Origin: an uncultured delta proteobacterium
GTDB taxonomy: Bacteria > Myxococcota_A > Polyangia > Polyangiales > Polyangiaceae
Assembly: GCA_963782055.1 (NCBI GenBank)
Contig: CAWAIF010000003.1
Span: forward strand, 5,184,001 to 5,248,000
Direction: 5' to 3'
Length of the DNA stretch: 64,000 bases
The notes beneath the pieces are model-generated. The model had not been told where the DNA came from and made no database searches. It saw only the letters and a list, made by a program, of their open reading frames with translations. Position numbers and translations under genes: made by a program. Within the stretch, counting starts at the first letter, position 1. Each line of letters begins with the position of its first letter. Below, piece after piece: positions 1,669-48,412 of the stretch.

Positions 1669-2457
1669 TCACGCACGCCGCGCCAGCTGCAGCCGCGCCG
1701 TGGAGTGGCGCTCCACCTGCCCGCCGAACTGGCGGTCGATGATCTCGCCGATGGCGTCGAAGAGGCGCGCGCGCCGGTCGGCGGGCAGCGTGGCGTGGTC
1801 GGAGAAGGTGGCCAGGGTGTCCAGGTAGCGCTGCCGATCGAAGCGGTGCGCCTGGGGGAAATGCCGCTCGGCGAAGTCACGCAGCTCCGGCGTGTCGCGG
1901 ATGGCCTGGCCGATCGCGTCCACCTCGCCGCCCATGCGGTCCACCGTCTCGCGCGAGATCTCCGGCGCATGCGCGCGGTACGCGGGCTGGAGCGCCGCGT
2001 CGACGCGCTCGTCCTCCGCGGTGCGCCGCGGCGCGCCCCAGATCAACGCCAGCGCGCCGCTGGGTTTGAGCACCTTCACCACCTGGCGCAGGGCGCGCTC
2101 GCGATCGAGCCAGTGGAACGCCGAGCTGCACACGACCAGGTCCACGCTCGCGGGCTGCAGCGCCACGTCCTCCAGCTTGCCCACCTCCACGGTGAAGGGG
2201 AACGCCGCCAGTCGCTCCCGCGCGAAGGCGGCCAGGTTCTCGCCGAGCTCCACCGCGTGGATCCGGAAGCCGCGCTCGAGCAGCGGCAGCGAGGCGTTGC
2301 CCGGCCCGCAGCCGATCTCCAGCGCGTCGGCGGGCGGCGGCATGATGGCGACGAGGGCGTCGAGGAGCTCGGGTGGCGGGGACGGGCGCGCGCGGGCGTA
2401 GAGCTCGGCCATCTGGTCGAAGCTGCGGCGGCGTGCGTCGGCGGTGGCGGCGGACAT
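1669..2457 (-). CDS. Class I SAM-dependent methyltransferase
   Basis: LEIGCGPG motif I; DLVVCSSAFHW; LKPSGALAL. Confidence 0.85.
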   Translation of the reverse strand: MSAATADARRRSFDQMAELYARARPSPPPELLDALVAIMPPPADALEIGCGPGNASLPLLERGFRIHAVELGENLAAFARERLAAFPFTVEVGKLEDVALQPASVDLVVCSSAFHWLDRERALRQVVKVLKPSGALALIWGAPRRTAEDERVDAALQPAYRAHAPEISRETVDRMGGEVDAIGQAIRDTPELRDFAERHFPQAHRFDRQRYLDTLATFSDHATLPADRRARLFDAIGEIIDRQFGGQVERHSTARLQLARRA

Positions 2458-2502
2458 CGGTCGATCCTACTCCCTTCCCGCCGCACGACCGGCGCTTCGC
2501 CG

Positions 2503-2550
2503 TATGCGAAATGGGGCCGTCCGGCCTCACTGGAAGGACGGACCAGGGTG
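2503..2550 (+). repeat. 99-bp unit, right half only (copy 1)
   Basis: TATGCGAAATGGGGCCGTCCGGCCTCACTGGAAGGACGGACCAGGGTG matches the right half of 43862-43960. Confidence 0.9.
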
Positions 2551-2565
2551 CGTAGAGTGGGCTGC

Positions 2566-3846
2566 TCAAAGACAGCTGCGTGGCTGCAAGATCAGCCCAG
2601 GCGCGGGGCTCTGGTGAAAGTCGAACGCGCCGAGGAGGTCACCGGCGGTTCCGTCCCGCGCGGTGGGCGACTCGCTCGACATGCGCGGCAGTCCGAAGAG
2701 ATCCTCGATGAGACGTGGGATGGAGGCCTGCTCGGTCGGCGTGTGGTAGACGCCGCCCTTCGCCGTCCACGGCGAGATCAGCAGCGTGGGCACGCGAAAC
2801 CCCGCGTTGAAGGGACCGGCGTCGCCCTGGCAAGGCGCCACGGTCGGCGCGACGTGATCGTAGAAGCCGCCCCAGTCGTCGTAGGTGACGATGAGCAGCG
2901 ACTCGTTCCAGTGCGGGCCCTGCATGATCGCGTTCGCGATGGCGACCGTGTCGTTCTCTCCGAGGCAGATGTTCTGGGGCGGGTGCTCGCTGTGATTGCC
3001 GCCCCAGACGTAGGTGATGTTCGCCATGTCGCCGGCCTTCAGGTCGCCGAGCAGGGCGCTGTTCAGCTTCGTCATGCCGCTCGTGCCCGCCGCGTGGACG
3101 CCCTGGATCGCGTCGAACGGCGAGGCCAGCGGCACCGTCGGCACGTACCGATCGGTGTAGCTGCGCCAGGTCACGCCGTCGGGCAAGTGGTCCACGATCG
3201 AGGGGATCGAGAAGCAGGGCTTCCGCGCGCCGTTCTCCGCGCACGTCGACGGATCGTAGGTGGGGGCCACCGCTTGATCCGTGTCGGCGCAGCTCCAGTC
3301 GACCCCGCTGGGATTCTCGTACGCCGGAGACTGCGCCGAGATGAGGGCCAGATAGCCGGGGAAGCTTCCGCCGAGGGTCGTGCTGAAGAAGGCATCACAC
3401 AGCACGTACTGGTCGGCGTACGCGTAGTAGTTCGGGATCGTCGCCTTCGTGTACTGCTCGAACGGCAAGAGCGGATCGGTGGGCTGCGGTACGAGATCGA
3501 AGCCGTCCATCGCGCCGTGGTCGTAGCTGGTCACGGCGGCCGGGTGTTCGTGCGCGGGGTTACCGTCCAGCGTGCCCTGCGGCATCGGCGTGAGCGGACG
3601 CGTACCGCCATCGGACAGCCTGGCTGCCGACGCGCCGTCGACGCCCGGGTACGCGCCGAAGAGGCTGTCGAAGGTGTGGTTCTCCTTCACGAGCACCACC
3701 ACGTAGCGGATCGGAGACGCGATCCCCGCGTCGGCATCCGGCCCGGCGTCCGGGGGTGGCGCCGTCGAGTCGGGGCTGTCACAGGCCGCCGCCGCGAGCG
3801 TCGCGATCACGACGAGGCCACTCGCCCACCGCACCAAGCTTCGCAT
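2566..3846 (-). CDS. Phosphoesterase / phospholipase C family lipoprotein
   Basis: Lipobox AAAC; VVLVKENHTFDSLFG, SEHPP, TYDDWGGFYDHV, GFRVPTLLISPW. Confidence 0.9.
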   Translation of the reverse strand: MRSLVRWASGLVVIATLAAAACDSPDSTAPPPDAGPDADAGIASPIRYVVVLVKENHTFDSLFGAYPGVDGASAARLSDGGTRPLTPMPQGTLDGNPAHEHPAAVTSYDHGAMDGFDLVPQPTDPLLPFEQYTKATIPNYYAYADQYVLCDAFFSTTLGGSFPGYLALISAQSPAYENPSGVDWSCADTDQAVAPTYDPSTCAENGARKPCFSIPSIVDHLPDGVTWRSYTDRYVPTVPLASPFDAIQGVHAAGTSGMTKLNSALLGDLKAGDMANITYVWGGNHSEHPPQNICLGENDTVAIANAIMQGPHWNESLLIVTYDDWGGFYDHVAPTVAPCQGDAGPFNAGFRVPTLLISPWTAKGGVYHTPTEQASIPRLIEDLFGLPRMSSESPTARDGTAGDLLGAFDFHQSPAPGLILQPRSCL

Positions 3847-4037
3847 CCGTCACCGTCCCTCATGTCACTCGCGCGTCCGTTGGGAGAAGAGGCCGTCCAG
3901 AGGGGATCGTACGTCAAAGGGGGCTCGCACGGTGGCGTCTGCCGGGCTACGACGGGGGCGCGAAAAGAATCGTGCGGGGGCGTGTCGATCCGGCGGCGGC
4001 TCCTTCGTCGCGAGATCGGAACCCCGAGGAGGATCCC

Positions 4038-4409
4038 ATGAAGTACCTGACATTCATCCGCCACTCCGAGTCCTACCGCGCCACCCCGCCACCGTCCGCG
4101 CTGATGGACGCCATGCGCGAGTTCGTGGAGCGTTCGTTGAAGGAGGGCACGCTCCTCGACACCGGTGGCCTCTTGCCGAGCAAGGACGGCGTGCGCGTCC
4201 GGCTCGCGGCCGGCAAGATCACCGTGACCGACGGGCCGTTCAGCGAGGGCAAGGAGATCATCGGTGGCTGGGCCATCCTGAAGACCGACTCCAAGGCCGA
4301 GGCCGTCCGCGTCGCGACCGAGTTCATGGAGCTGCATCGAAAGCACTGGCCCGGCTTCGAGGGCGAGTCGGAGGTGAGGCCGATGTTCGACCCCGGCATG
4401 GGGCCGTAG
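4038..4409 (+). CDS. YciI/DGPF-domain protein
   Basis: TVTDGPFSEGKEIIGGWAI motif; GAGGAG RBS before ATG 4038. Confidence 0.85.
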   Translation: MKYLTFIRHSESYRATPPPSALMDAMREFVERSLKEGTLLDTGGLLPSKDGVRVRLAAGKITVTDGPFSEGKEIIGGWAILKTDSKAEAVRVATEFMELHRKHWPGFEGESEVRPMFDPGMGP

Positions 4410-4475
4410 CGCGTCGACATCGGGAGCTGGCGCGCGCGCTCGCCGCGACGTTCGTGGTGACGCCCGGAGACGTGT

Positions 4476-6869
4476 GTGAGAGCATGGCCGATCGTGGGTC
4501 ACGCCTATTTCGACCGGGGCGCCGCCAGCCGGCGGTTCGAGGCCGAACGAGCGACGACCCTGCGCTCGCGTGTCCGGACGCTCGTCGTCGTCCTGTCGGT
4601 CTTCTGGCTGCTCCAGCTCGCCTTCGGTGACGCGAAGGTCTTCGCCGCGGCCTGGGCGATCGTCGTCCTTCGCGTGGTCGAGGCCGTCGCGAACGTGGCG
4701 CTCCTCGTCGCGCTTCGAACGCCGAGCGCGTCCCTGCCCGGGCTCGAGCGCCGCACGCTGGCGTGGTTGAGCGCCGTCGTCGTGAGCATGGGTGTGGCGG
4801 TGTTCGGCGCGAGGCCCGAGTTCGTCCCGATGATGATTGGCAGCTACTTCGTCGGGATGCTCGCGTTCACCGGCTTCGGCTTCCGGTGGCGAACGATGGC
4901 GGCGATGCACGCGCTGTGCGTCCTGACGTTCCTCCCCGTGGGGCTGGTGCTGATGCCGGCCTGGCGGTTGGTCTACGTCGTGGTGGTCTCCATCTTCGCG
5001 CTGCCGTTCACGCTCCTCGCGGTCTCCGGGGCGTTCCGCGACCGGAGCGAGCTCGCGGCCATCGACGCCCAGCTCGCCCTCACCGCGACGAACGAGCGGC
5101 TGCGTGCCACCGAGGAGGCGCGGTCCCGTCTCTTCGTGAACCTGAGTCACGACCTCCGGACGCCGCTCGCGATCATCCGCGGGGACGCCGAGCACCTGCT
5201 CGCTGCCGCGCCAAACGCCGACGGCGCACGGTCGCTGCAGCGCATCACCCGCAACGCGGAAACGCTCGTCGAGCTCACGGCGCAGCTCCTCGAGCTGGCG
5301 CGCATCGACGAGGGGCGCCTGCCGCAGCAGCTCGCCAACGTGGACGTCGTGTCGCTGGCTCGCGACATCTGCGCGCAGCTCGCGCCGCCGAAGGGGGTCC
5401 GCTTCGTGTTCGACGGCCACGACGTGGTGGCGCGCGCCGACCCGCGGCACGCCCACCGCGTACTGGCGAACCTCGTGGGGAACGCCGTCCGCGAGCTGCG
5501 CCGCGGCGGCAGGGACGGCACGGTCGAGATCCGCGCGAGCCGCGACGAGCGACGTGGTGCCGTCGTGGTCGACGTGATCGACGACGGGCCCGGCGTGCCC
5601 ACCGACCGCCGAGCCCACCTCTTCGAGCGCTTCGCCCATTTCGACCGGGCCGGCGACACCGGCTCGGGTATCGGCCTGGCGCTCGCTCGCGAGCTCGCCG
5701 AGTTCGACGGCGGCTCGCTCGAGTACGTCGACTCCGCCGCGAGGACGACCTTTCGCCTGACGCTCCCGGAGGCGACGGGAACGGCCGACCCGTTCCCCTG
5801 GAGCTCGCGGGCGCCGAGCGCGCCGGCGCGACCCGTCGACACGACCGGCGTGCGCCCGGAGCACGCGCCGCGCATCCTGGTGGTCGAGGACTGGCCCGAC
5901 ATGAGCGACGTGCTCGTCCGCCTTCTCTCGCCCGCATTCGACGTCGAGACGGCCGCGACCGTGGCCGACGCCGTGGCGACCGCGCGCGCGGTCATGCCGA
6001 CGGCGGTGCTGGCCGACGTGATGTTGCCCGACGGCAACGCGTACGACCTGCTCCAGCGCCTGCGCGCCGACCCCGAGCTGGACGCCGTTCCGGTCGTGCT
6101 CCTCTCGGCGCTCGGCGAGCCCGCGGACCAGGCGCGCGGCCTGGCCGCAGGCGCCGACGACTACGTCGCGAAGCCGTTCTCGCCGCAGGAGCTCCTCGCG
6201 CGGCTGCGCGCCTGCATCGAGCGAGCGGCGACGCGAAGGCGCGCGCTCGCCGAGCAGCGTCGCGAGCTCGCGCTGGAGCTGCACGATGGCGTGGCGGGCG
6301 ATCTCGCGCGCGCCGTGGTGCTGCTCGGCGACGACGCGACGAACGCGCCGGCCCTCGAGGGCGCCCGCGCCGCCGTTCGCGAGGGTCTGCACGAGATCCG
6401 CTCCCTGATGTGGACGACCACGCATGCGCCCGAGTGGCGGGGGCTCGTGGCGAACGTCCGTCGCGGCCTCGCCGAGACATGCGAGGGGGCGGGCCTCGAG
6501 CTCTCGTTCGCCTCTAGCTCCGACGACGACGAGACGCGCGTCCCACCGACCGTCGCCCACGCGCTTCGCCGGATCACGCAGGAGTGGGTGACCAACGTCA
6601 TCCGCCACTCGGGCGCGAAGAAGGTGTCGTGCGTCCTGGTGCACGGCGACGGCTTCGTGCACGCGCACATGGAAGACGACGGCCGCGGGCTGGACGTCGC
6701 GCGTCCGGCCGGTCATGGGCTCGCCGGCATCGCGCGCCGCGCGCGGGCGCTCGACGGCCACGCGTCCTTCTCCAACGGCGACTCGGGCGGCGCGGTGATC
6801 GAAGTGGCGCTCCGGCTGATGCGGCGTCCGCGCGCCACGGGTCATCCGGAGCGCGCATCCGGCGATTGA
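4476..6869 (+). CDS. Membrane hybrid sensor kinase: TM-HisKA-HATPase-REC-HisKA_3-HATPase
   Basis: Hydrophobic N-terminus; SHDLRTPL; NLVGNA/DDGPG/GSGIGL; REC VVED..LADVMLPD..KPF; second kinase LHDGVA..NVIRHS..EDDGRG..GHGL. Confidence 0.85.
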   Translation: MRAWPIVGHAYFDRGAASRRFEAERATTLRSRVRTLVVVLSVFWLLQLAFGDAKVFAAAWAIVVLRVVEAVANVALLVALRTPSASLPGLERRTLAWLSAVVVSMGVAVFGARPEFVPMMIGSYFVGMLAFTGFGFRWRTMAAMHALCVLTFLPVGLVLMPAWRLVYVVVVSIFALPFTLLAVSGAFRDRSELAAIDAQLALTATNERLRATEEARSRLFVNLSHDLRTPLAIIRGDAEHLLAAAPNADGARSLQRITRNAETLVELTAQLLELARIDEGRLPQQLANVDVVSLARDICAQLAPPKGVRFVFDGHDVVARADPRHAHRVLANLVGNAVRELRRGGRDGTVEIRASRDERRGAVVVDVIDDGPGVPTDRRAHLFERFAHFDRAGDTGSGIGLALARELAEFDGGSLEYVDSAARTTFRLTLPEATGTADPFPWSSRAPSAPARPVDTTGVRPEHAPRILVVEDWPDMSDVLVRLLSPAFDVETAATVADAVATARAVMPTAVLADVMLPDGNAYDLLQRLRADPELDAVPVVLLSALGEPADQARGLAAGADDYVAKPFSPQELLARLRACIERAATRRRALAEQRRELALELHDGVAGDLARAVVLLGDDATNAPALEGARAAVREGLHEIRSLMWTTTHAPEWRGLVANVRRGLAETCEGAGLELSFASSSDDDETRVPPTVAHALRRITQEWVTNVIRHSGAKKVSCVLVHGDGFVHAHMEDDGRGLDVARPAGHGLAGIARRARALDGHASFSNGDSGGAVIEVALRLMRRPRATGHPERASGD

Positions 6870-7735
6870 GGCCGGCTCGCCTGACGACGAGGGAGGAGGC
6901 CCCTCGCACGGCCGACCGGGCTCCCGGTTGATCCCCTTAACCCGTGATCGGCTAACACTGACCATTAGACCAGGATTGCAAGCTGTCCGAGCTGTGCGCG
7001 CACGGGCAGAGGAAGCCGGCGACGGTTCGGGTCGGGCGCCTCGCGCAGCAGCAGGCGTCGCAGACGCGCGGCGATGGAGGCTAGCCGGCGCCCCGGGCGC
7101 GCCCGGCGACCGGCCGACCGCGCCCCCCGGACGCGACCTTGCGGGCGAAGGCACCCGGCCTGCCGGCGTTCCTGCGGTGCTCCGCCGGGCTGACGTTTGG
7201 GGATCGGCCCCGCGAGGCGCCTGGCCAGGCGCGCGAGCGTGACGTCGTCGACGGGCGCGCGCGCGTCGTGGATGACGCGGCCGCCGAAGACGGCGAGGTG
7301 GTGATCCGCGAGGAGCTTCGCGTCCGAAGCGGCGGTCGTGCGAGGCATCTGCAGTCCTTTCCTGGAGACCGGCGGCCCGGGACCCGCCCGAGCGTACCAT
7401 CGCGGGCACGCCGGCCGGGACCACGCCGCCTCGTCTGCGCCGGGATCGGAAGCTGTCTCGGCCTGCCCACGCGACGCCCCGCGTCGAGGCGCCTGCCGAG
7501 GCAGGTGGAGAACCGCACTCGAAATCGTGTGCGCACGATGCCCGCGCGCGAGGGAGGCCCGCTCGAGCGCGCGCGTGTGCTTGTCGTTGTCGGGTTGGCC
7601 TCCTCCTGCGTCGCGCCGGCGGCGGTCGTGCGCTGCGCGGCCTCGGCGGCTGCGAGCCCGCCCTCGAGGTGCGCGACGGGCGCGGCGTGCAGATCGGCCT
7701 TGTTCATGCGGCGATAGTCTGGTGAGTTCGCGATC

Positions 7736-10700
7736 ATGTCGAGTGTCCTCGCCGTGGTCTCCAAGGCCATTTTCGACAAGCAAGCCAAGGGCCTCGCGCC
7801 GGGCGCCGTGTGGGACACCGCCCGCTACGCGAGCCACAACCCGAACCTCGACGCGCTCGCGAGCGGCGGCGGCGACCTGTTCCTCGTCACGGTCCGCCCG
7901 AACGACGTCCTCTGGCTCGTCGCGATTCTCCGCGCGCCCAAGGCGGACGCCGACGGCTGGAAGAGCGCCCCGAACACGACCCCCGTCCGTGACGTCACCG
8001 AGCTCCTCCCGAACCTGAAGTTCTCGACCGGCAAGGGCGTGAAGGCCGACAAGGGCAAGCTCGGCATGTCCCTCCAGACCCCGCGCCAGCTCACCCCCGC
8101 CGACGTCACCCTCCTCGACGGCGCTCCCACGCCCCTGCCCACGCGCACGCCCACGCCCACGCGCACGCCCACGCGCACGCCCACGCCCACGCCCACGCCC
8201 CCGCCGACGACCACGCCCCGCGTCGTCCTCACAGAGACCGTGCGCAAGTGGCTCACGCCCAGCCCACCCAAGCCCCCCGCGCGCTACGTCCGCGCGGCGC
8301 GCGACAAGGCCGCCCAGGACGCGGCGCTCGCGAACGCCAAGCCCGAGGTCACCGCGCTCGCGGCGAAGATCCGCGCGTGGCTCGACGACGGAGCGCGCTT
8401 CACCGCGAAATACGACGACGAGACCCAGGTGGCGGCCGCGAATTTCCTCCAGCGCTTCTTCGGCGTGCCGGATTTCGCCGCGCATTGGGCTCACGAGCTC
8501 GGCGTCGCGCACGCCGCGCGGCTCCTTCTCCACGATCGCCTCGTCGATCTCGGGACCGGGGCCAAGCGAGAGCTCGTGCGCAGCAAGCAACGCCACGACG
8601 CCTACGACCACCAATTCGCGCTCTCGCGTCTGGTCCCCCACGCGCGCGGCCTCTCGCCCGACGAGCTCGCGGAGGTGAAGCGCGAGCTCGAGCCGATCGT
8701 CGCGCCGCTCCATCCGACGGTGCACCTGGCGCTCGCGCGCGTCGTCCGGGACCAGGAGACCATCGACGCCATCGCGCGTCGCGCGGCCAGCGACGCGGCG
8801 TTCTTCCAGAAGGCCGAGGAGATCGCTTCGATCTCGCGCGTCATCGTCGCCGAGTCGCACGACGCGGACGCGGTCGAGGCGATCCTCGTGAAGAAGCCTT
8901 CGTGCGTCCAATTCGGCGGCGCGCGGGGCCTCGCGCGCGCGCTCCAGAACATCCCCGTCGCGACGCTCGAGCGCGCGCTCCTCGCGATCTTGCCCGCCAT
9001 CGAGAAGAAGGCGACGCCCGGAGACTACAAGGAGATCTTGCGCGTGCTCGCGTGCATCGACGACGCGCCCGTCGCCGACTACCTCGCGCAGCGCGCGCAC
9101 GCGAAGCCGGTGCAGCCCGTCGCGCTCGAGTACTTCACGCTGCACCCCCACCACCTCGGCGCGCTCGAGGCGGTGTCGAAGCAGAAGGGCAAAGCGGGCG
9201 CGGCCGCCGCGACGATCCTCGACTCGGCGCGTCGCCACGCGCGTACGCCCGCGCCCACGCCCGCGCCCACGCCCACACCCACGGGCACCGCGGAACCGCG
9301 CGTGGCGATCACCGAGACCGTCCGCAAGTGGCTCACGCGCGACACGTTCAAGCGTCCCGAGCGCTTCGTCCGCGCGAACCAACCGAAGGACGTGCTGAAG
9401 CGGATCGACGACGCGCTCGGGCGCGCGGCCCCCGAGGTCGCGCCCATCGCCGCGAAGATCCGCGCCTGGCTCGCCGACGACGACGGGCGCTTCTCGGCCG
9501 CTCACGACGACGAGACCCAGGTCGCCGCGTCGAACTTGCTCCTGCGGTTCTGCCACGGCCTGCGCTTCCACACGCCGGACTTCGTCGGAAACTGGGTCGA
9601 GGCGTTCGGGGTCGAGCACGCCGCGCGCCTCCTCCTCCGCGACCCGATCGTCGATCTCGACTCCACGTCGCGCGTGGTCGACGAGCGGCTCGTGCGCGCA
9701 GCGGATGCCGGCGGCCGGGCCATCCGACTGGAGTTCGCGCTCCGTACGCTGCTCCCGTACGTGCGCGATTGCGCTCCGGAGGAGCTCGCCCGGCTGAAAC
9801 GCGAGATCGAGCCGCTCGTCGCGGACCTTCCCCCGGTGGTCCACCTCGCCGTCGCGCGCCTCGTGCGCGACCAGGAGACCATCGACGCGATCGCGCGACG
9901 CGCGGCCGAGGACGTGGCGCTCCAGCTGGACCTCGTGCGGTCCGGCGTCTTGAGTGTGCTCGTCGCCGAGTCGCGCGACGCCGATGCCGTCGAGAAGCTC
10001 ATCGTGATGGGGGGCAACGCCGCGCCGAGCCTCGCGTGCGCCCTCGAGCACCTCCCGGTCGCGACCATGAAGCGCGCCATGCTCGCGATCTCGCCGCAGA
10101 GCGAGAAGGCTACGCCGGGCCGTTACAAGGCGTTTCTCGAGGTGCTCGCGTGCATCGTCGACGCCGACGTGGCCGACTACCTGGCGCGCCACGCTCACGC
10201 GAGGCCGGCGCAACCCGTCGCGCTCGAGTACTTCACGCTCCACCCCCACCACCTCGGCGCGCTCGAGGCGGTGTCGAAGCAGAAGGGCAAAGCGGGCGCG
10301 GCCGCCGCGACCGTCCTCGAGTCCGTGCGCCGACGCGCGCCGGCCGGGGCTCCCGTGGCCGCCGCCGCGGCGACCGCGTCCACCGACGGCGTGCCCGTCG
10401 TGCTCCGCGCGCCTCCTTGGAAGAAGAAGGGCGACGGCGACGATCTCGTCCTCGATCTGCCCATCCCGATCGAACCGGTCACCCAGCTCCGCCCCGACGA
10501 GTACGTCAAGTGGGTGCAAGGCCCGCTCTGGACGCGATTCCGGGACGTCGCGAAGCTGAAGGCGCACCTCGAGTCGGGTCACTACCCCCAGATCCGCAAC
10601 GAGTACCTCGAGGGGCTCTTGACCGACCTCGGCCCGGAGGCGGCGCCGGTCGTGATCGAAGCGGCCGCGCGCGAGCCGGCGGCGAACATCGGCTTCCTCA

Positions 10701-12355
10701 CGCACGTCCTGTCGCCGCGCGGCGCGGTCGCGCTCGCGTCCCTGCTCGCTCGGACGAAGGAGGCTCCGGAGGTCCGGGCGTTCTTGATCGATCACGCCGA
10801 CCTCGCCGCGCGCGGGCTCGTGCCCGCCGCTGTCGCCAGGGACGCCAAGCTCCGGCGCGCGGGGCGCGCGGGGATCGCGGTGCTGGCCGACGCCGGCAAG
10901 CTCGACGCCGTCGCGGCCGTCGCGAAGACGCTCGGCGTCGACCCGAAGGCCCTCGAGCCCGATGACGCGCTCCCCGCGCCACGGAAGATGCCGCCGTTCG
11001 CCGACGCGCGCGCCCTGCCCGCGCCGGTCCTCGCCGAGAGCGGCGCGCCGCTGCCCGAGGCGGCCGTCGCCAACCTGCTCGCCATCCTCTCGGTGCTCCC
11101 GAAGGACCACGGCCACCCGAGCGTCGACGCGATCAAGGCGGCCTGCACGCAGGAGTCGCTCGACGCGTTCGCCTGGGCGCTCCTCTCGGACTACGTGCTC
11201 GCGGGCGCGCCGGCGCGCCACGACTGGGCGCTCTTCGCCGCCGGCCACCTCGGCTCGGACGACGTCGCGCGCAAGGTGGACGCCGCGGCGCGCAAGTGGG
11301 TGCAAGTCAGCGTCCCGCTCATGCAGAAGTCGCTCGACGTGCTCGCGCTCATCGGCACCGACGTCGCGCTGTCGCTCTGCTACGAGCGCGGGCTCGCGGC
11401 GAAGTTCGCCGACACGCAGGAGCGCGCGCGCCGGATCCTCGAGCAGGTCGCCGCGCAGCGCGGAATCGACTACGCCGAGCTCGAGGACCGCCTCGTGCCC
11501 GAGCTCGGCCTCGACCGCGGCCCGATCGTGCTCGACTACGGCGCGCGAACCTTCGAGGTGAAGCTGGACGAGCACCTCGCGCCCTACGTCGCGGTCGACG
11601 GCGTGCGCCGTGAGGCGCCTCCCAGGCCGGCGAAGTCGGACGACGCGGCGAAGGCCAAGGTCGCGGCCGCGCGCTACGCGACGCTCGCGGAGGACCTCTC
11701 GCACGTCGCGCGGACGCAGATCCTCCGCCTCGAGCGCGCGATGCGCGAGGGGCGCGTCTGGCCGCGCGACGCGTGGCTGCGCGAGGTGGCCGAGCACCCG
11801 CTCCTTCGCCACCTCGCGCCGCGCATCGTCTGGCGCGCGGGCGACGCCCTCGTGCGCATCGCGGAGGACGGCACCTTCTCCGACCCGAACGACGAGCTCG
11901 TCACCCTCGACGGCGCGGTCGAGGTCCGCGTCGCCCACCGGCTCGACGAGGATCCCACGCAGTGGGCGAAGATGTCGCAGGTCTTCGGCGACTACGAGAT
12001 CCTCCAGCCGTTCGACCAGCTCGGGCGCGAGACGTTTCGGCCGACAGGTGCAAAATACACGGATTCGGTCGGGCGCAAGGCGCCGTGGGCGGCGGTCGAC
12101 GAGCTGCTCACCGGGCGCGGCTGGATCCGCACGCCGCCGGACGACGGCACGGTCAAGACGCTCGCCTTCCCGCTCGACCGCGTCGGCGTGGCGGGGGCGC
12201 GCGCGACGCTCGGGATCACGCCGGGCCTCACGATCGGCCCGGTCAAGGCGCGCCCCGAGCAGACGGTGGGCGAGCTCGTGCTGCACGGCGTCACGTTCGA
12301 GGAGCTCCAGCCGCGCGTCGCGAGCGAGCTCACGCGCGACGCCGCCACGCTCTAG
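7736..12355 (+). CDS. Large DUF4132-domain-like protein with internal tandem duplication and Pro/Thr linkers
   Basis: 1539 aa; C-terminal ELEDRLVPELGLD..RLERAMREGRVW..HPLLRHLAPRIVW..FGDYEILQPFDQLGRE typical of DUF4132; two ~350-aa repeats starting PRV.(L/I)TETVRKWLT. Confidence 0.8.
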   Translation: MSSVLAVVSKAIFDKQAKGLAPGAVWDTARYASHNPNLDALASGGGDLFLVTVRPNDVLWLVAILRAPKADADGWKSAPNTTPVRDVTELLPNLKFSTGKGVKADKGKLGMSLQTPRQLTPADVTLLDGAPTPLPTRTPTPTRTPTRTPTPTPTPPPTTTPRVVLTETVRKWLTPSPPKPPARYVRAARDKAAQDAALANAKPEVTALAAKIRAWLDDGARFTAKYDDETQVAAANFLQRFFGVPDFAAHWAHELGVAHAARLLLHDRLVDLGTGAKRELVRSKQRHDAYDHQFALSRLVPHARGLSPDELAEVKRELEPIVAPLHPTVHLALARVVRDQETIDAIARRAASDAAFFQKAEEIASISRVIVAESHDADAVEAILVKKPSCVQFGGARGLARALQNIPVATLERALLAILPAIEKKATPGDYKEILRVLACIDDAPVADYLAQRAHAKPVQPVALEYFTLHPHHLGALEAVSKQKGKAGAAAATILDSARRHARTPAPTPAPTPTPTGTAEPRVAITETVRKWLTRDTFKRPERFVRANQPKDVLKRIDDALGRAAPEVAPIAAKIRAWLADDDGRFSAAHDDETQVAASNLLLRFCHGLRFHTPDFVGNWVEAFGVEHAARLLLRDPIVDLDSTSRVVDERLVRAADAGGRAIRLEFALRTLLPYVRDCAPEELARLKREIEPLVADLPPVVHLAVARLVRDQETIDAIARRAAEDVALQLDLVRSGVLSVLVAESRDADAVEKLIVMGGNAAPSLACALEHLPVATMKRAMLAISPQSEKATPGRYKAFLEVLACIVDADVADYLARHAHARPAQPVALEYFTLHPHHLGALEAVSKQKGKAGAAAATVLESVRRRAPAGAPVAAAAATASTDGVPVVLRAPPWKKKGDGDDLVLDLPIPIEPVTQLRPDEYVKWVQGPLWTRFRDVAKLKAHLESGHYPQIRNEYLEGLLTDLGPEAAPVVIEAAAREPAANIGFLTHVLSPRGAVALASLLARTKEAPEVRAFLIDHADLAARGLVPAAVARDAKLRRAGRAGIAVLADAGKLDAVAAVAKTLGVDPKALEPDDALPAPRKMPPFADARALPAPVLAESGAPLPEAAVANLLAILSVLPKDHGHPSVDAIKAACTQESLDAFAWALLSDYVLAGAPARHDWALFAAGHLGSDDVARKVDAAARKWVQVSVPLMQKSLDVLALIGTDVALSLCYERGLAAKFADTQERARRILEQVAAQRGIDYAELEDRLVPELGLDRGPIVLDYGARTFEVKLDEHLAPYVAVDGVRREAPPRPAKSDDAAKAKVAAARYATLAEDLSHVARTQILRLERAMREGRVWPRDAWLREVAEHPLLRHLAPRIVWRAGDALVRIAEDGTFSDPNDELVTLDGAVEVRVAHRLDEDPTQWAKMSQVFGDYEILQPFDQLGRETFRPTGAKYTDSVGRKAPWAAVDELLTGRGWIRTPPDDGTVKTLAFPLDRVGVAGARATLGITPGLTIGPVKARPEQTVGELVLHGVTFEELQPRVASELTRDAATL

Positions 12356-12370
12356 GTTCACCCCGGAGGC

Positions 12371-12429
12371 CGCATAGGAAATGCTGGCGCGGTCGGGCGC
12401 GAAAGCTTGCGAAATCCGTGATATGCGAA
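12371..12429 (+). repeat. 99-bp unit, left half plus TATGCGAA (copy 2, diverged)
   Basis: CGCATAGGAAATGCTGGCGCGGTCGGGCGCGAAAGCTTGCGAAATCCGTGATATGCGAA; right-half hairpin absent. Confidence 0.9.
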
Positions 12430-12499
12430 GCTACCGTACGGCGCTGGCTGCGCACGGATCCACGCGCATCGGGCGACGCAGATCGTGTATGAAGCCTCC

Positions 12500-13168
12500 A
12501 TGACAATCTCCGTCGTCACGGGCGCCAACAGGGGTATTGGGCTCGCACTCGTCGCCGAGCTCACGAAGCGCGGCCACACGGTGCTCGCCGCGTGTCGCAA
12601 GGCCTCGCCCGAGCTCGAGAAGCTCGGCGCCGAGGTCGTCGTTGGCGTGGACGTCTCGACCGACGAGGGCATCGCCGCGCTCGTCGCCGCGGTCGGCGCG
12701 CGCTCGGTCGACCTGCTCGTGAACAACGCGGGCATCCTCGTATGGGGCGACCGCCTGGGAGCGCTGAACGTGGAGGGCATCCGCAAGCAGTTCGAGGTGA
12801 ACGCACTCGGGCCGCTCCGCCTCACCGATGCGCTGCGCGACAGGTTCCCCCGCGGGGCGAAGGTCGCGCTCGTCACCAGCCGCATGGGCTCGATCGACGA
12901 CAACTCGTCGGGCGGCGCGTACGGCTACCGCATGAGCAAGGCCGCGCTCAACATGGCGGGGAAGTCGCTCGCCGTGGACCTTCGCGAGCGAGACGTCGCC
13001 GTGGCGATCCTCCACCCCGGCATGGTCAAGACCGACATGGTCGGCGCGCACGGTGGCCAGGTGGAGCCCGCGGACGCCGCGCGCGACCTGCTCGCGCGCG
13101 TGGACGAGCTCACCATGGAGACCTCGGGCGGCTTCTGGCACGCGAACGGGCAGCGCCTGCCCTGGTAG
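12500..13168 (+). CDS. Short-chain dehydrogenase/reductase, CsgA (C-factor)-like
   Basis: VTGANRGIG, NNAG, YGYRMSKAALNM, LHPGMVKTDM. Confidence 0.88.
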   Translation: MTISVVTGANRGIGLALVAELTKRGHTVLAACRKASPELEKLGAEVVVGVDVSTDEGIAALVAAVGARSVDLLVNNAGILVWGDRLGALNVEGIRKQFEVNALGPLRLTDALRDRFPRGAKVALVTSRMGSIDDNSSGGAYGYRMSKAALNMAGKSLAVDLRERDVAVAILHPGMVKTDMVGAHGGQVEPADAARDLLARVDELTMETSGGFWHANGQRLPW

Positions 13169-14692: not shown

Positions 14693-15292
14693 CTAGTAGA
14701 AGCGGAAACCAGATTCGTACGCTATTAACCACTTTGGAGGCATAGGGCCAGATCCGGCGAACATTGTCCGAGCGCACGGACCATTCCAGGATTCGACCAC
14801 CTGGATTGCGGCCTTCTGCCAGTCGGTCTCTTCTTTGTCCGCGAGTCTCTCCCCCTCATCGCCTTTACTACAGCTGCCTGCCATTTGTGCGACATAGAGT
14901 GCCGATCCCAACGCCCGAGCGGTCGCGACAACGGCCTCATTCTCATTCGAGGTGATGGCCTCGACGATTCGGAGTGAAACCGTTGCCGAGGAGGCGAGGA
15001 TTGTGATTCCTTCTTCGTTGAGGTACGCCACGACATCCTTGAGGCTGATAAGCAATCCAGTTCTTGCTGCGGTGTCGATCTCCTCGCTTCCAGATGCATG
15101 CTTCCATCCAAATTCAACCGCCTCCTTGACGGCCGGATAGTGGTTGCCGACCCAATGTTTGTCATAGACTTGGTGCGCGCGTTCTCCACACGCACTGGCC
15201 AAAGCAACGCGCGCGCGGAGTGCGACTGGTGCCAATCTCTTTTTCCTGAGGGAGTGCGTGGGAGTGCGTTCAGAACGATTGTGTGGCCGCAT
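14693..15292 (-). CDS. Hypothetical helical protein, possibly toxin-immunity-like; 5' end abuts the 99-bp unit
   Basis: Lower-GC ORF (RARVALASACGERAHQVY..EETDWQKAAI); nearest upstream in-frame ATG lies within the repeat's CGCAT. Confidence 0.5.
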   Translation of the reverse strand: MRPHNRSERTPTHSLRKKRLAPVALRARVALASACGERAHQVYDKHWVGNHYPAVKEAVEFGWKHASGSEEIDTAARTGLLISLKDVVAYLNEEGITILASSATVSLRIVEAITSNENEAVVATARALGSALYVAQMAGSCSKGDEGERLADKEETDWQKAAIQVVESWNGPCARTMFAGSGPMPPKWLIAYESGFRFY

Positions 15293-15374
15293 AGGAAATG
15301 CTAGCGCGGTCGGGCGCGAAAGTTTGCGAAATCCATGGGGCCGTCCGGTCTCACTGGAAGGACGGACCAGGGTG
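15288..15374 (+). repeat. 99-bp unit with 12-bp core deletion (copy 3)
   Basis: ..GAAATCCAT|GGGGCCGTCC..; the CTTATGCGAA(A/G)T core is missing. Confidence 0.92.
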
Positions 15375-15790
15375 GCGAGGTCGACGGCGTCATCGACCAG
15401 ACGATGCCGTCCGGATCGACCCCTTCGTAGCTGCCGCCAGGCTCGGGCGCCGCCGTCGCGAGATCGACGACGCCGTTCGCGTCGGCGTCGAACGTCGCGC
15501 TCGCGCCCCAACCCGTGAAGCGCGCGGTGACGGTGATCTGGGCGACCGGATCGAGACCGGTGACGCGGACGTCGAGCGCGTTCGCCCAGAGCATGCGCGT
15601 CACCGCGACGGGCGTCGTGCCCGAGACGTCGAAGAAGGTGACGGCCGGCGACGGCGGCGTCCCGGCGTCGGGGCTGCCCGCGTCCGGCGCGTCGGGCGCG
15701 GACCCGCCGCACGCGAGCGCGGCGAGCGCGACGAGCGCGACGAGCGCGACGACCGGCGGAAAACGAGGCGGAGGCGGAAGCGCATCCTCG
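15375..15790 (-). pseudogene. Acyl-CoA thioesterase/BAAT N-terminal-domain lipoprotein, 3'-truncated at the repeat
   Basis: LDVRVTGLDP..ASATFDADANGVVDLATAAPEPGGSYEGVDPDGIVWSM runs directly into the repeat; no hydrolase domain follows. Confidence 0.7.
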
Positions 15791-18006: not shown

Positions 18007-18852
18007 ATGGGTGCGAAGCGAAGACTGCGGGACACGATGAGCGAGGACCTCGCGCTGCGAGGGATGAGCGCCAACACGATCGCCACGTACGTGGGGTGCG
18101 TGCGGCGGTTCGCGCAGTACCACGGGCGGTCGCCGTGCGCGCTGGGGGCGGCGGAGATCCGGACGTTCCTTTTGCACCTGGTGGCGGAGCGCAGGCTGGC
18201 GGCGCTGACGGTCAACGTGCACGCGGCCGCGCTGAGGTTTCTCTACGAGGTGACGCTGGAGCGGCCGGAGGCGACGCTGGGGATGGCGCGCATGCGGGTG
18301 CCGATGCACGTGCCGGTGGTGCTGACGAGCGCGGAGGTGGCGCGGCTGCTCGCGTCGCTCACGAGCCACAAGCACCGGGCCCTGGTGATGCTCGCCTACG
18401 GGGCGGGGCTGCGCGTGAGCGAGGTGTGCAAGCTCCGGGTGGACGACATCGATCCGAAGCGGATGCTCCTGCACGTGCGGCACACCAAGCGCGGGCGTGA
18501 GCGCTACGTGATGCTCAGCGCGAGGCTGCTGGCGACGCTGCGCGCGTACTGGAAGGCGTCACGACCCGCAGGACCGCAACTGTTTCCGGGGCGCGTGCCC
18601 GGGACGCTCCTCACGCGCGCGGCCGTCCACCGGGCGATCCTCAAGGCGGCGCGGCGCGCGGGCATCACCCGGCGCGTGTCGCCGCACACGCTGCGCCACA
18701 GCTTCGCCACGCACCTGCTCGACGCAGGGACCGACCTTCGCACGTTGCAGGTCTTGCTCGGGCACGCGTCGCTCAGGAGCACGATGGCCTACCTGCACGT
18801 GAGCACCGCCCGCGTGCAGTCGATTCAGAGCCCCCTCGACGCGCTGCCCTGA
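18007..18852 (+). CDS. Tyrosine recombinase/integrase with N-terminal SAM-like domain
   Basis: GLRVSE (R), TKRG (K), HTLRHSFATHLL (HxxR), LLGH, MAY (Y). Confidence 0.95.
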   Translation: MGAKRRLRDTMSEDLALRGMSANTIATYVGCVRRFAQYHGRSPCALGAAEIRTFLLHLVAERRLAALTVNVHAAALRFLYEVTLERPEATLGMARMRVPMHVPVVLTSAEVARLLASLTSHKHRALVMLAYGAGLRVSEVCKLRVDDIDPKRMLLHVRHTKRGRERYVMLSARLLATLRAYWKASRPAGPQLFPGRVPGTLLTRAAVHRAILKAARRAGITRRVSPHTLRHSFATHLLDAGTDLRTLQVLLGHASLRSTMAYLHVSTARVQSIQSPLDALP

Positions 18853-18858: not shown

Positions 18859-19815
18859 ATGCACCCGTCGTGTGCGCCCGCGCGCACGCGCGCGGCGCCC
18901 ATCGAGCTCGCGGACGTGGTGCGCGCCCACGGCGAGGCCTTCGCCGGCGGCCGCGTGCTGCGTCCCGAGGAGCGGTCGGCGCTGCGGGCGATCGAGCGAT
19001 GCCGGACCGCCGCGCTGGGCGGACATCTGGACGTGTGCACCGCGTGCGGGCTCGAGCGACCGTCGTACAACTCGTGCCGCAACCGGCACTGTCCCAAGTG
19101 CCAGTCGCTCGCGCAGGCGCGGTGGGTCGCCACGCGGCTCGAGCGCATTCTGCCCGTGCACTACTTCCACGTCGTCTTCACGCTCCCCGCCGAGCTGCGC
19201 GCCGTCGCGCGGCGCTCGCGCGCGCGGGTCTTCGACATGCTCTTCGCGAGCGCGGCCGACACGCTGGCCACCCTCGCGCGGGATCCGAAGTGGCTCGGCG
19301 CCGAGCTCGGCGTCACGATGGTCCTGCACACCTGGACGCGCGCGCTGCTCTTCCACCCCCACGTGCACGCCATCGTCACCGGCGGCGGACTCACCGGCGA
19401 CGCCGCGCGCTGGGTGCGCGCGCGCCGTCGCTTCCTCTTCCCCGTGCGCGTGATGGGCGTCTCGATGGGCGAGCGCGGCGTCACCTTCCGCACCAGAGAC
19501 GGCAAGTCGGTCACCGTCCCGGCCGAGGAGCTGCTCGCGCGCTTCGTCCAGCACGTGCTGCCGCGCGGCTTCGTCAAGATCCGCCACTACGGCCTGCACT
19601 CCGCCAGCCACGCCACCACGCGCCTCGAGACCGCACGCCGCAGACTGGGTCCGCACGCGCCCGCTGCGCGACCGGAGCGCCGTGCCGTCGCCGCCGACCT
19701 GCTGCTGCGAATCGCGGGCATCGACCTGCGCCGCTGCCCCGCTTGCCACACGCCTGCCCTCGTGCGCACCGCGCTGCCCGAGCCCCGAGCTCGCGCCCCG
19801 CCGAGGGCCGCATGA
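18859..19815 (+). pseudogene. IS91-family transposase with in-frame 201-bp deletion removing the catalytic YxxxY
   Basis: Zn-binding CTAC..SCRNRHCPKCQ and HUH HPHVH retained; YLGRY seen in 55420-56577 absent. Confidence 0.9.
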
Positions 19816-28701: not shown

Positions 28702-28789
28702 ATCGGCATAGGGGCCCCGGGTTTCCCCGGGGACCCCTGCCACACCACCGGACAGGCGGGTCCGCATCCGGCGGTTCGGAGAGTTGAGG

Positions 28790-29249
28790 TCACGTGTCGA
28801 GCCGGGGAAGCCCCAGCTCGTCGAAGAGCTTGTTCGGCAGAGCCACGCTGAGGACGCGCATTCCCGAGGTTCGCCACCAGCGCGTCGTATTTGCTGCCGC
28901 GCGGCGAGCGTCGACGGGAGGGATCCCCCGTCGGCGCAGTTCTCGGAAGACGGTGACTCCTCGCACCCACTGCTTCAACTGCAGTGCGCGGAGTCGGTGC
29001 CGGATCCAAGAGTCCAGCTCGCGAAAGAGCGTGCGGAGCTCGACAAGCTGGAAGTAGTTCTTCCAGCCTGGCAAGTACCCTCGCAGATCTCGGCAGACCT
29101 GGGCCAGGCTCCGACCGCGCATGCGGCTCGTCATGTGCCGCACGCGGTCCTTCATCGTGTCGAGGGCCTTGCGCGCGATCGTGCAGCGGACCTCGTTCTT
29201 CGACGACAACCAAAAGGTGTAGCCGAGGAACTTCCGGTCTTGCACGGGT
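28790..29249 (-). pseudogene. ltrA: Intron RT/maturase, C-terminal part (RT7 and domain X)
   Basis: PVQDRKFLGYTF..GWKNYF..LDSWIRHRLR; in frame with the N-part after IS removal; no En domain. Confidence 0.9.
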
Positions 29250-29259
29250 GCCACCGCGC

Positions 29260-30704
29260 CATGCCCGATCTCTTAAGCACCGATCGCCCCAAGTTTGAGG
29301 GCGATTCGTTTCCTGGAGCGTGAAGGTTGTCGTTCGCGTGCCAGAGCGACGAGTGCCGCGCCCACGGTGGTCACGACGGCAGTCCACGCGGCGGTGCTCA
29401 GGGAGACGAGGGCGTCGACCAGGTCCCGCGCGTAGGCGCGCACGACGTGCAACGTCGCCAGGGGGCGCAGTTGCTCGAGAGGGACGTCGCGCGCGAGTGC
29501 AGCCTGGATCCTGACCGAGCGCACGAGCGCGTGGGCGAGCATCGCGCCGTAGGTGAGCGCCTTGATCGCGTGGGGATCGGCGGTGAAGGAGCGGCCGAGG
29601 TCGGCGGTCTGCTTCAGCTCGCGAAAGAGCAGCTCGATCAGCCAGCGGAGTCGGTAGGTCTGGATGATCTGCCGTGGCGAGAGCACGCTGCGCGGCACGG
29701 TGGTCAGGTACCAGCGGATGACGGTCGACTTGTGCGCGAGTCCCACGAGCCGCAATGCGACGGTGTCCTTGCCCTTGCCCCACGTCACGTCGAGGTCGAA
29801 GATCGTCCCGCGCTTGCGCGACACGCTCTGCAGGTAGTAGCCAAGCGACCAGTTGTGGAGCGGGGTGTGGCCGTTCTCCGAGATGTGCGCGGTCACGCGT
29901 ACCTTCGCCGTGGTCTTGAGGCGCATCAGCACGTGCGCGCCGGCAGCCTTCGCCTGGGTGAACAGAGCGCGCTCGAAAAAGCCGAGGTCGAAGAGGTAGA
30001 GCACCCCGCGCGTGAAGCTCGGGACCAGCTTCCGCCACAGCGGCGTCTCCGACGCGGTCTCCGCGTCGGAGACGCCGTGCTCGAGCAGGCCGGTCTTGAT
30101 GCTGTAGCCCATCACCCACTTGGTGCCGGCCTTGCCCTTGGTGCATCCCGGCAGCAGCTCGCGCCCGCGCGGTGGCACGCGCTGCCCCGTACCGTCGTAG
30201 ACCCGCACGTCCTCGAAGCGGGCGAGCGGCCCGCTCAGCTCCAGGCCCGCCGCCTTCGTCACCGACGCCACGAGGTGCTCGAGCGCCGCGCGGAAGAACG
30301 CCGCCGCCGACTCCTGCTTGAACCGCTTCTGGAACGGGCACGGGCGCATGAAGCCGAAGCGCCTCACGAAGATCGCCCGCAGCGACTCGAACGACAGCGT
30401 CTGGCCCGCGAGGAACCCCTCGACGACCGTGAGCACCAGGCGGAACGCGGTGGCGCGCCGCTGCCGCGGGTTGTAGCCGGTGCGGCCCCGAAGCTCGTCG
30501 ATGACCGCCGGCGTGAAGGTCCGCTGCAGCTGCTCCTCCACCGCGCTCGCCTCTTCGCTCGGGTCTGGACGGCTGCTCGTGGCTCGGGTAGCTCTCGTCG
30601 TCATCGGGCGTCCTCTCCTTGTTGGTGTCGCAACCGAACAACGAGAAAGGCGCCCGATTTATTTCCATCATTCCGCCACGTTATGTCCAAAGGATCTGGC
30701 CATG
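29260..30704 (-). mobile_element. IS4-family insertion sequence, 1445 bp
   Basis: 10-bp TSD GCCACCGCGC (29250-29259, 30705-30714); imperfect IRs CATGCCCGATCTCTT / CATGGCCAGATCCTT. Confidence 0.9.
29273..30604 (-). CDS. IS4-family DDE transposase
   Basis: VYDGT, LFDLGFF, YRLRWLIELLFRELKQ (YREK motif). Confidence 0.92.
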   Translation of the reverse strand: MTTRATRATSSRPDPSEEASAVEEQLQRTFTPAVIDELRGRTGYNPRQRRATAFRLVLTVVEGFLAGQTLSFESLRAIFVRRFGFMRPCPFQKRFKQESAAAFFRAALEHLVASVTKAAGLELSGPLARFEDVRVYDGTGQRVPPRGRELLPGCTKGKAGTKWVMGYSIKTGLLEHGVSDAETASETPLWRKLVPSFTRGVLYLFDLGFFERALFTQAKAAGAHVLMRLKTTAKVRVTAHISENGHTPLHNWSLGYYLQSVSRKRGTIFDLDVTWGKGKDTVALRLVGLAHKSTVIRWYLTTVPRSVLSPRQIIQTYRLRWLIELLFRELKQTADLGRSFTADPHAIKALTYGAMLAHALVRSVRIQAALARDVPLEQLRPLATLHVVRAYARDLVDALVSLSTAAWTAVVTTVGAALVALARERQPSRSRKRIALKLGAIGA

Positions 30705-31618
30705 GCCACCGCGCTCTTCGACTCGTTGATCTGGAGATGGAGCTTCGCGTAGAGACGCCGCAGCGCCTGCATGACCCGCTCGCCCGCTCGCCGTGACCGC
30801 ACGTAAACGTTGCTGTCATCGGCGTAGCGCACGAAGGCGTGTCCGCGCTTCTCCAGCTCCTTGTCGACTTCGTCGAGGAGCACGTTCGCAAGCATTGGCG
30901 AGAGAGGACCGCCCTGGGGCGTTCCCTCGTCGCGATCCATCACGACGCCGTTCGCCATGATGCCGGCGTTCAGGTAGCGACGGATGAGTCCCAGCACGCG
31001 CCGATCCTCGATTCGTTTGGCCAGTCTCCCCATGAGCACGTCGTGGTTGACGCGGTCGAAGAAAGCTTCGAGATCCACGTCGACCACCCATCGTCTTCCT
31101 TGCTGCACATACCGCTTCGCCTCGCGCACGGCGTCGTGCGCGCTGCGCCGCGGCCGGAAGCCGTGGCTGTGCTCCGAGAAGGTCGGATCGAATCGAGGCT
31201 GCAGGACCTGCAAGAGGGCCTGCTGGATGAGTCGGTCGAGCACCGTCGGGATGCCGAGCTGTCGCTCGCCGCCGCCGCTCTTCGGAATCACGTGCCGTCG
31301 CACCGGCTGCGGCTGGTACGTCCCCGCGAGCAGCTGCTCGCGGAGGGACGGCCAGTGCACGCGAAGGTGGTCCGGTAGCTCCTCCACCGTCATCCCGTCG
31401 ATGCCGGGACTGCCCTTGTTCCGCTTCACTCGCTTCAGCGCGGCCTGAAGGTTCTTGCGCGTGAGCGCCGCCTCCATCAGCCCGCTCGTTCCTGAGCGCT
31501 CGGTTCCATGGGTCGCCGAATCCGCTTCCACGCGTCGGTCGTCGCTCGGGGCTTCACCATCCGCGGCGGTCGGCGTCTCGCTCTTGGACTTCTGTGGCTG
31601 CGCGTTCTCGAGATCCAT
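30705..31618 (-). pseudogene. ltrA: Intron RT/maturase, N-terminal part (RT0-RT6)
   Basis: GSPGIDG, LGIPTVLDRLIQQA, GTPQGGPLSPMLAN, RYADD. Confidence 0.92.
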
Positions 31619-32226
31619 GGGCGTTTCGCCCTCCTCTCCGTTTGGCCCTTCGCAGCGATAGAGACTTCCGGGGTTCGGGGGGGGTCCCTGCCCGGCTCCT
31701 TCGCCGCTACTACGGCCTCTGCTGACTTCTCGCTCCGTCCGACGTTGTCGCCGGCCGTCGCCCTTTCAGGCGCGAGGCGAGATCTCCCCAGGTAAGAGCA
31801 TCAACCTTCACCGCACGACCGCCGGATATACGCCGCCGAGCTTCGGTCACGAGAGCTTCGCGGGTTCCAGTCCGCTCGCCCTGCTCGGCCACGCCTCCGA
31901 TCCGATTTCTGTACGTCGGCCCGCGGCTTCGCTCCCCACTTCCTCCAGACGGTCCCTCACGGTTCCGCCCTTGTGGTTCGCTTCTGTCATTGTGACCAAT
32001 TTCAGGAAGGACTTTCACCTCCGGGTTGATGCCCATGCTGGGCGCACTGGACGAAGCCGCTGCGCGGCAGCGTGGCTCCGCATCAAGCTCGCTCGCGACC
32101 CGGGAGCCCCGCGAGCCGTGTGCGCGCTGACGAGCCCGCCTCGTAGCCCTCGCGTGCCGTGATGCGGGCGATCCTGCGGCGCGCGCCGCCCGCTCGTGGG
32201 CGCGCGCGGAGCCGAAGGAGGCCGCG

Positions 32227-42166: not shown

Positions 42167-42169
42167 GCG

Positions 42170-46906: not shown

Positions 46907-46908
46907 GT

Positions 46909-48273: not shown

Positions 48274-48412
48274 CTCCTCGGCAAACGGGGACGGAACGCT
48301 GCCCGACCCTCTACCAGCTGCAACCCTACCGCCGCAAAGGACGCCCATCTCGTGGACGCACGCGCGGTGGGGCCCACGGCCGCCCGCGCGAGTTCGATTC
48401 CCGTCGCCATGT

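Follow-up and report, generated by a model that had tools for sequence, protein, structure and literature searches.

Elements of the IS91 family are described, in the sections of the sources cited here, as capturing adjacent DNA by read-through without duplicating their target (IS91; PMC13181058) and as having short fragments of the origin end that transpose (IS801; PMC3189936). Integron integrases are reported to place cassettes in double-stranded attG sites with only one cut (10.1101/2022.09.11.507474) and also to recombine two double-stranded attI sites (PMC4792948), and the recombinases found with IS91 have been assigned to an integron-like subgroup without the IntI insertion (10.1101/542381). 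Here we analyse a block of four genes lying between the two separated halves of a repeat, which we call the pad, in a window of 64,000 nucleotides (the whole stretch of DNA analysed, G000:C3:5184001-5248000) from the bacterial genome G000 (7.58 Mb, 72% GC, 3 contigs). The reading we favour, with moderate confidence, is that the block is a circle made of one pad and its cargo, which was opened at the dif-like core of the pad and integrated by a tyrosine recombinase at an arm-like secondary site between a methyltransferase gene (MTase) and a short-chain dehydrogenase gene (SDR).

The block starts with a lone right half of the pad (R, 2503-2550, plus strand), made up of a dif-like arm, a CCGTCC/GGACGG hairpin and the fixed outer end GGGTG, continues with the four genes and closes with a lone left half (L, 12370-12420, plus strand), whose outer end is oriIS-like (4 nt followed by ATAGGAAAT). 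R matches the pad consensus at 45/49 positions and L at 45/51. The octamer TATGCGAA is present at both junctions (2503-2510 and 12422-12429, plus strand), and the order of the parts and their coordinates are as reported in the initial annotation. The first copy corresponds to positions 2-9 of the dif-like arm, with G at arm position 1 where T is usual. The second lies within a complete dif-like 11-6-11 site, AGCTTGCGAAA TCCGTG ATATGCGAAGC (12404-12431, plus strand), that spans the right junction; since L continues through this complete site, the second copy could be the pad's own arm. At the left junction the left arm matches at 1/11 positions, so that no whole dif-like site exists there. The octamer has 50 copies in the genome, of which 16 are not in an element-like context.

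On the left, the block is flanked by the gene of a class I S-adenosylmethionine (SAM) methyltransferase (1669-2457, minus strand; Pfam Methyltransf_11, E=5.5e-19), whose ATG is 45 bp from the junction, and on the right by the SDR gene (12500-13168, plus strand; Pfam adh_short, E=4.9e-28), whose ATG is 70 bp away. Excision of 9,919 bp leaves a gap of 123 bp between the divergent ATGs at 2457 and 12500, in agreement with the roughly 120 bp first estimated, and places GCTTCGC (2494-2500, plus strand), complementary to the arm GCGAAG(C), as the left arm of a predicted empty-site stem. Scans of both junctions for promoters and terminators found nothing.

The pad itself is about 100 bp long and has some 40 copies in the genome (44 L and 42 R matches by BLAST), in which L and R are mostly either fused as a 100-bp pad or split by an integrase+IS91 module, in arrays of a single direction. 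The reference fused pad (43861-43961, plus strand) has the core AGTTTACGGAA TCCATC TTATGCGAAGT, which differs at 2 and 1 arm positions from the sole host dif candidate, AGTTTACATAA TGTATC TTATGCGAATT, at G000:C3:3558740; this candidate is near the skew maximum and a matching site occurs in five relatives of the genus. Past the last R of three arrays, on the opposite strand and directed at L, there is a second Y2 transposase gene (Y2_Tnp 1.8e-27, Zn_Tnp_IS91 7.8e-16; copies 100, 98.5 and 90% identical) of the ISCR-like type (G000:C3:5265299-5267533, minus strand, and also near 4409731-4411350 and 2741380-2742743), which in the copy examined ends some 36 bp from the array's last pad. This parent gene encodes the Y2 HUH transposase with a zinc-binding domain that characterises IS91/ISCR, and none is present inside the block.

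The outer end of L, four bases plus ATAGGAAAT, is the same as the origin end of two public-plasmid IS91-family copies, and the distance from the oriIS motif to the nick is equal to that in those copies. Because the transposase points to L and the outer end of L is like an IS91-family origin, the pad is the oriIS end of an ISCR-like Y2 element, carrying an 11-6-11 copy of the host dif site; the fixed outer end of R is an early stop point. The outer ends of the pads join foreign DNA at a purine (37/40 before L, 34/35 after R), and this purine alone is conserved, with no specific target tetranucleotide as in IS91/ISCR. Many of the outer flanks match uninterrupted paralogues in the genome with at most 1 nt of ambiguity and show no target-site duplication. 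A comparison of the pad with plasmids gave no match. Pad arrays with other end sequences were found in the genomes G004, G369 and G358, and loci of these three and of G387 contain related transposases.

How could such an end come to enclose foreign genes with its halves in swapped order? A circle with one pad and its cargo could arise by rolling-circle read-through from the origin or by recombination between two neighbouring pads. Opened at the origin by the transposase, it would yield L-R-cargo, and opened at the core by a recombinase it would yield R-cargo-L. We infer that the block is the second permutation. Its outer boundaries lie in the core, with the origin and the fixed R end pointing inwards, and not at ori and ter as in IS91/ISCR insertions. 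The circle would have been opened at the boundary between spacer and arm and joined to a chromosomal half-site that matches one arm at 9/11 positions and the second arm at 1/11, probably by a single strand exchange followed by resolution through replication. R starts within 1 nt of the crossover seen in the family, and a single event accounts for both junctions and restores the divergent gap with both genes intact.

Both halves are diverged variants akin to a pad nearby. The first pad of the neighbouring array, 2.9 kb from the block (15287-15375, plus strand; L+R with a deletion across the core), is a sister of the block's halves: L12370 is a diverged variant sharing two substitutions with it that are absent from the other seven L copies compared, and R2503 has GAAAT, the variant implied for the R of the 15287 pad, where the deletion lies. 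The arm after L reads GAAGC, as would be expected if that arm came from the target, an argument of 1-2 nt. As for the enzyme, the integron-like integrase of the module is somewhat the likelier candidate and host XerCD a less likely, still credible one; the integrase is favoured because the target has no second dif-like arm.

A possible second instance is present in G004, in which a lone R (C4:18674) and a lone L (C4:13458) enclose 5.1 kb, with foreign DNA starting at N|TT on both sides; no empty site for it was found in 5 genomes. The earlier proposal that a circle had been opened at the core is thus backed by the permuted order, the junction within 1 nt of the crossover, the single gap on rejoining and the block in G004, while its hairpin argument was overstated, as detailed below.

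On the other hand, the proposal that [right half-cargo-left half] is the mobile unit did not survive comparison of 37 R and 40 L flanks. No R-cargo-L unit with the same two ends was seen twice among them, so this arrangement is not that of a fixed cassette. The cargo at 39822-43860 exists in three copies that are 99% identical but differ in their pad junctions. In a test for circular permutation, which left out one tandem pad-pad pair, 0/26 pairs of an R and the next L and 0/32 pairs from the same pad were bridged by a protein homologue, bar one tandem-pad artefact; at the DNA level there was one weak bridge (76% over 104 bp), unconfirmed. Among other lone-looking halves, those at G000:C3:4450607/4452184, on G358:C3 and on G369:C4 turned out to be L-IS-R insertions of insertion sequences (IS) with short duplications and not cassettes, and a lone R...L pair on G358:C24 was not counted, being flanked on one side by a module-like end and on the other by an inverted arm.

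The behaviour of the module indicates what the core can do. Its tyrosine recombinase (18007-18852, plus strand; Phage_integrase and Phage_int_SAM_4), present in four copies in the window, is 281 aa long and has the integron-integrase model as its best match, yet it stays under the cut-off (TIGR02249, 198.9 bits in two stretches, against 265) and does not have the catalytic-domain insertion of IntI. Its catalytic motifs are intact. This sub-cut-off score agrees with what is described for the IS91 recombinases (10.1101/542381). The IS91-family Y2 transposase of the module is full length only at 55420-56577 (plus strand; NF033538, 390.6 bits, above cut-off), the copies at 18859-19815, 33079-34038 and 38474-39433 each lacking about 67 codons. 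The genome also encodes two Xer-like proteins, probably XerC and XerD.

The module inserts at the inner core of the pad whatever the spacer sequence, and its joined ends fold into a long stem, with the crossover at the base of a 12-bp stem. In 10 module-start matches preceded by a dif-like arm (a subset of 20 such matches outside the genome, some of which may be the inner inverted repeat and whose genomes are not all different), TT is preceded by any of the four bases. The crossover must therefore be at N|TT, NT|T or NTT|, without any need for spacer identity, and the variable spacers together with the folded module ends suggest a single-strand exchange with a folded partner. Furthermore, both sides of one cut target, the only clean case in 1,404 pairings, are now found on pads of different arrays (95.7% over 141 bp against a paralogue that is uncut), which fits exchange at or across pads. 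These two sides (window 60567-60668 and G000:C3:4437618-4437719) belong to oppositely oriented arrays 0.8 Mb apart and may be the trace of an inversion between pads. On the minus strand of window 28702-32047, a group II intron into which an IS4 has inserted separates L from the start of the module, precisely at CT|T, and a similar intron is found upstream of an integrase+IS91 pair on a Paraburkholderia plasmid.

The initial annotation also noted a stem at the predicted empty site. The 7-bp stem is indeed present and seldom arises by chance on the MTase side: with a random genomic left flank, it was obtained in 0.18% of 200,000 draws (P=0.0018; a 6-bp stem in 0.64%), and the fold energy across the junction was reached by 5/4,000 random flanks. 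Several findings, however, weigh against single integration, and the first concern this same stem. With TATGCGAA(G) or TATGCGAAG fixed, 18-36% of random continuations on the SDR side fold equally well. Since most of the right arm of the stem belongs to the element consensus, the stem does not prove independently that the flanks were once joined. What the hairpin shows is that the flank on the MTase side is complementary to the arm of the element; it does not link the SDR to the MTase flank. Its arms are 5 nt apart, which is not the 11-6-11 geometry of a recombinase site, and the predicted crossover would fall in the 5-nt loop, unlike that at the base of the stem in the folded site of the module. 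The T usual at arm position 1 (34/37 L-side and 33/36 R-side sites) is absent from both junctions, which calls for a shifted crossover or for one or more substitutions, and the empty site could read GCTTCGC-CGTAT-GCGAAGC or GCTTCGC-CATAT-GCGAAGC. With 8 bp identical and the T missing at both junctions, the block cannot place the crossover; the position CT|T|A proposed at first is therefore not supported, the module junctions being compatible with N|TT, NT|T or NTT|.

Other adverse points come from outside the stem. The hairpin of the block in G004 is weak (P 0.017 without and 0.08 with a 10-nt spacer duplication), and by our reading rejoining across that block restores no open frame. The block analysed here is only 2.9 kb from the array, which targeting across the whole genome does not explain. 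The MTase was not found within 1.5 kb of the SDR at any of 24 non-self SDR loci from 61 genomes, nor did the SDR adjoin the MTase at 11 MTase loci from 383 genomes of the family, and the two were neighbours at 0/80 metagenome loci. Among the contigs listed from sequencing run X1 (share 0.07), which are short and scattered and are not from this strain, none contains a joint between 2502 and 12422. Viral contigs contained no relative of the SDR. The expectation that relatives would have the two genes side by side was thus borne out at 0/115 loci, in a test that has little power: the neighbourhood of the MTase varies from locus to locus (of the 24 close MTase loci that have 400 nt or more of upstream sequence, only 3 pairs have a common neighbour) and no strains of the same species were among the genomes. 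In the sample of 61 genomes, close orthologues of the MTase and of the SDR occur in different genomes, and G019 has distant matches to both on separate contigs.

The alternative that survives best, though we regard it as unlikely, is that the locus is a decayed array in which the segments with the MTase and the SDR are old cargo units, two independent deletions, made by a recombinase or random, removed the L once present before 2503 and the R once present after 12431, and the second TATGCGAA is the pad's own arm. This would account for the closeness to the array and for the degenerate L halves that precede the window by 6.2 and 7.2 kb, and randomly truncated halves do exist elsewhere in the genome. 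It also agrees with the full 28-bp dif-like site at the right junction, whose 2 arm mismatches match the divergence of this copy (6/51), and with the absence of any contribution of the SDR flank to the hairpin. What it requires in return is that two junctions both end just upstream of intact genes, with the left cut within 1 nt of the crossover, and either that the 7-bp complement arose by chance (P about 0.002) or that two rare arm-like sites lay close together, TATGCGAAG occurring 10 times per genome outside elements.

All readings other than a single integration or a decayed array are, even taken together, improbable. One is that the circle entered without a site-specific recombinase through 8 bp of microhomology, or that the octamer is the target duplication of a DDE transposase. 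Exactly 8 bp are in common, a crossover anywhere within them would account for the odd first bases, and in the core of another pad (G000:C3:4450608-4452139) an IS of 1,516 bp that has terminal inverted repeats did duplicate TTATGCGA. We consider it very doubtful, because the ends of the block are pad halves and not IS ends, the common bases are exactly the recombinase arm and the foreign joins in G004 keep N|TT without 8 bp of identity. Slightly less probable again is a pairing of R2503 with the degenerate L at G000:C3:5176834, by which the intervening 9.6 kb, including the MTase, would have entered a single pad in the manner of the module and the right junction would be a separate event. The resulting L...R is the normal filled order, and after that L come a short duplication of the spacer and foreign DNA starting with TT; but the fold of the rejoined ends is at chance level (equalled in 17% of draws), that L has substitutions other than those of the 15287/12370 lineage, and the right junction is left unexplained. 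An assembly artefact at a repeat, for which one could cite that run X1 is not of this strain, is barely conceivable, as the halves are only about 50 bp long, with unique variants and flanks, inside a 7.0-Mb contig.

The cargo consists of a phosphoesterase gene (2566-3846, minus strand; phospholipase C (PLC)-like; Pfam Phosphoesterase, E=1e-57, under the NCBIfam PC_PLC cut-off), a YciI-like gene (4038-4409, plus strand; Pfam YCII, E=6.1e-9), a hybrid histidine kinase/receiver gene (4476-6869, plus strand; HisKA, HATPase_c and Response_reg) and the gene of a 1539-aa DUF4132 protein (7736-12355, plus strand), which has an 84% identical paralogue at G000:C3:4510172-4513329. The stop codon of the phosphoesterase gene is 15 bp from the end of R and that of the DUF4132 gene 14 bp from L, so both ends of the cargo (2566 and 12355) are at most 15 bp from a stop codon; closing the cargo at these outer ends would leave the two genes convergent with some 30 bp between them, an arrangement that entry of one pad into a gap of a circle would explain. 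Its GC content (72%) is nearer that of the left flank (73%) than that of the right flank (68%). Orthologues of the YciI-like gene in 4 relatives have no other cargo gene nearby within the stretches examined. The cargo that follows the 43861 pad (window 44520-54057) is lower in GC and contains genes for a Panacea antitoxin and a DNA adenine methylase, as well as a type I restriction-modification operon.

Some further pads deserve mention. At G000:C3:4433279-4433480 two tandem pads meet in a direct junction of R end and L start, as would result from entry of a 100-nt pad circle into a pad. In the pads at G004:C6:155058, 156683 and 159158 and at G000:C3:5176879, a short stretch around the spacer is duplicated in tandem, which suggests staggered or repeated exchange at the core. 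ISs of about 1.5 kb sit in the dif-like cores of pads at G000:C3:4450608-4452139, G358:C3:1338903-1340541 and G369:C4:307912-309562, with duplications of 8 to 11 bp, and those of G358 and G369 have similar ends. The top strand of window 43861-43921 allows an alternative to the origin hairpin, in which the origin end of L and the core pair across the crossover.

Tentatively, these observations may be drawn together as a two-enzyme route of gene capture in myxobacteria, in which an ISCR-type HUH transposase would excise any stretch of several genes as a circle that bears a dif mimic. A tyrosine recombinase, either the integron-like integrase borne by IS91 or host Xer, would stack these circles in arrays or drop them elsewhere at arm-like sites that can form a hairpin. 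If this were true, the block and its counterpart in G004 would be natural products of the off-target reaction, the IS91-associated recombinase would gain a defined role and integron-like arrays would gain a source of cassettes without attC. On a practical matter, a block split at the dif-like core offers a concrete substrate pair, the pad and the rejoined 123-bp gap, for comparing the integrase with XerCD. Should either enzyme move captured DNA, rolling-circle capture followed by site-specific integration would be one route by which arrays are built, bearing on the spread of genes by ISCR-type elements and on the origin of cassette systems. In literature that was mainly open-access, with subscription journals mostly outside its coverage, we found no paper that combines these features, none on ISCR with oriIS and a dif site, and none that tests the function of the IS91-borne integron-like tyrosine recombinases.

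Taking each known system as the cited sections present it, the locus shares with IS91/ISCR and one-ended transposition (IS91, IS1294, IS801) the Y2 HUH transposase, the distance from oriIS to the nick and the lack of target duplication, as well as the movement of origin-end fragments on their own and the carriage of adjacent DNA (PMC13181058, PMC3189936); it differs in that the origin end contains a dif mimic, the block is opened in the middle of this end and not at ori or ter, and there is no fixed target tetranucleotide. As with integron cassettes at secondary attG sites, a cargo circle would enter a chromosomal site of low homology and the candidate enzyme belongs to the integron-like subgroup (10.1101/2022.09.11.507474, 10.1101/542381). 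Here, however, no attC accompanies each cassette, the cargo being 10 kb with four genes on both strands and its sole stem 7 bp long with the crossover in the loop, and the integrase is below the IntI cut-off; in addition, the site on the circle is dif-like and the target matches an arm at 9/11 positions, not the GWT triplet.

The pdif/dif modules of Acinetobacter likewise consist of accessory DNA between dif-like sites, shuffled through identical or near-identical spacers (PMC13141974), and the pad is an 11-6-11 site resembling the host dif as theirs are; in our case, the sites all have the same direction, lie in the end of a rolling-circle transposon and bound the block as split halves instead of whole sites. 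Integrative mobile elements exploiting Xer (IMEX), such as CTX phage, VGJ phage and TLC, undergo one-sided exchange at a dif-type site without spacer homology, and the joined ends of the module fold into a CTX-like stem, but the target here is not the chromosomal dif and has no second arm (PMC5357621). Indeed, no pad or module adjoins the dif candidate at 3.56 Mb. By analogy with this one-sided exchange, and given the two Xer-like genes, a host Xer route is possible (PMC5357621). Finally, the CR2-sul2 unit mobilised by the GIsul2 integrase is also related to ISCR and moves by means of a tyrosine recombinase that acts on att cores; those cores, however, belong to a genomic island, whereas here the site is inside the origin end of the transposon and mimics dif (PMC9376610). 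Each part of the system therefore has a known relative, in IS91/ISCR, in attG insertion, in dif modules or in CR2-sul2, and what this locus adds is a probable natural product of the recombinase step, together with one parallel in a relative.

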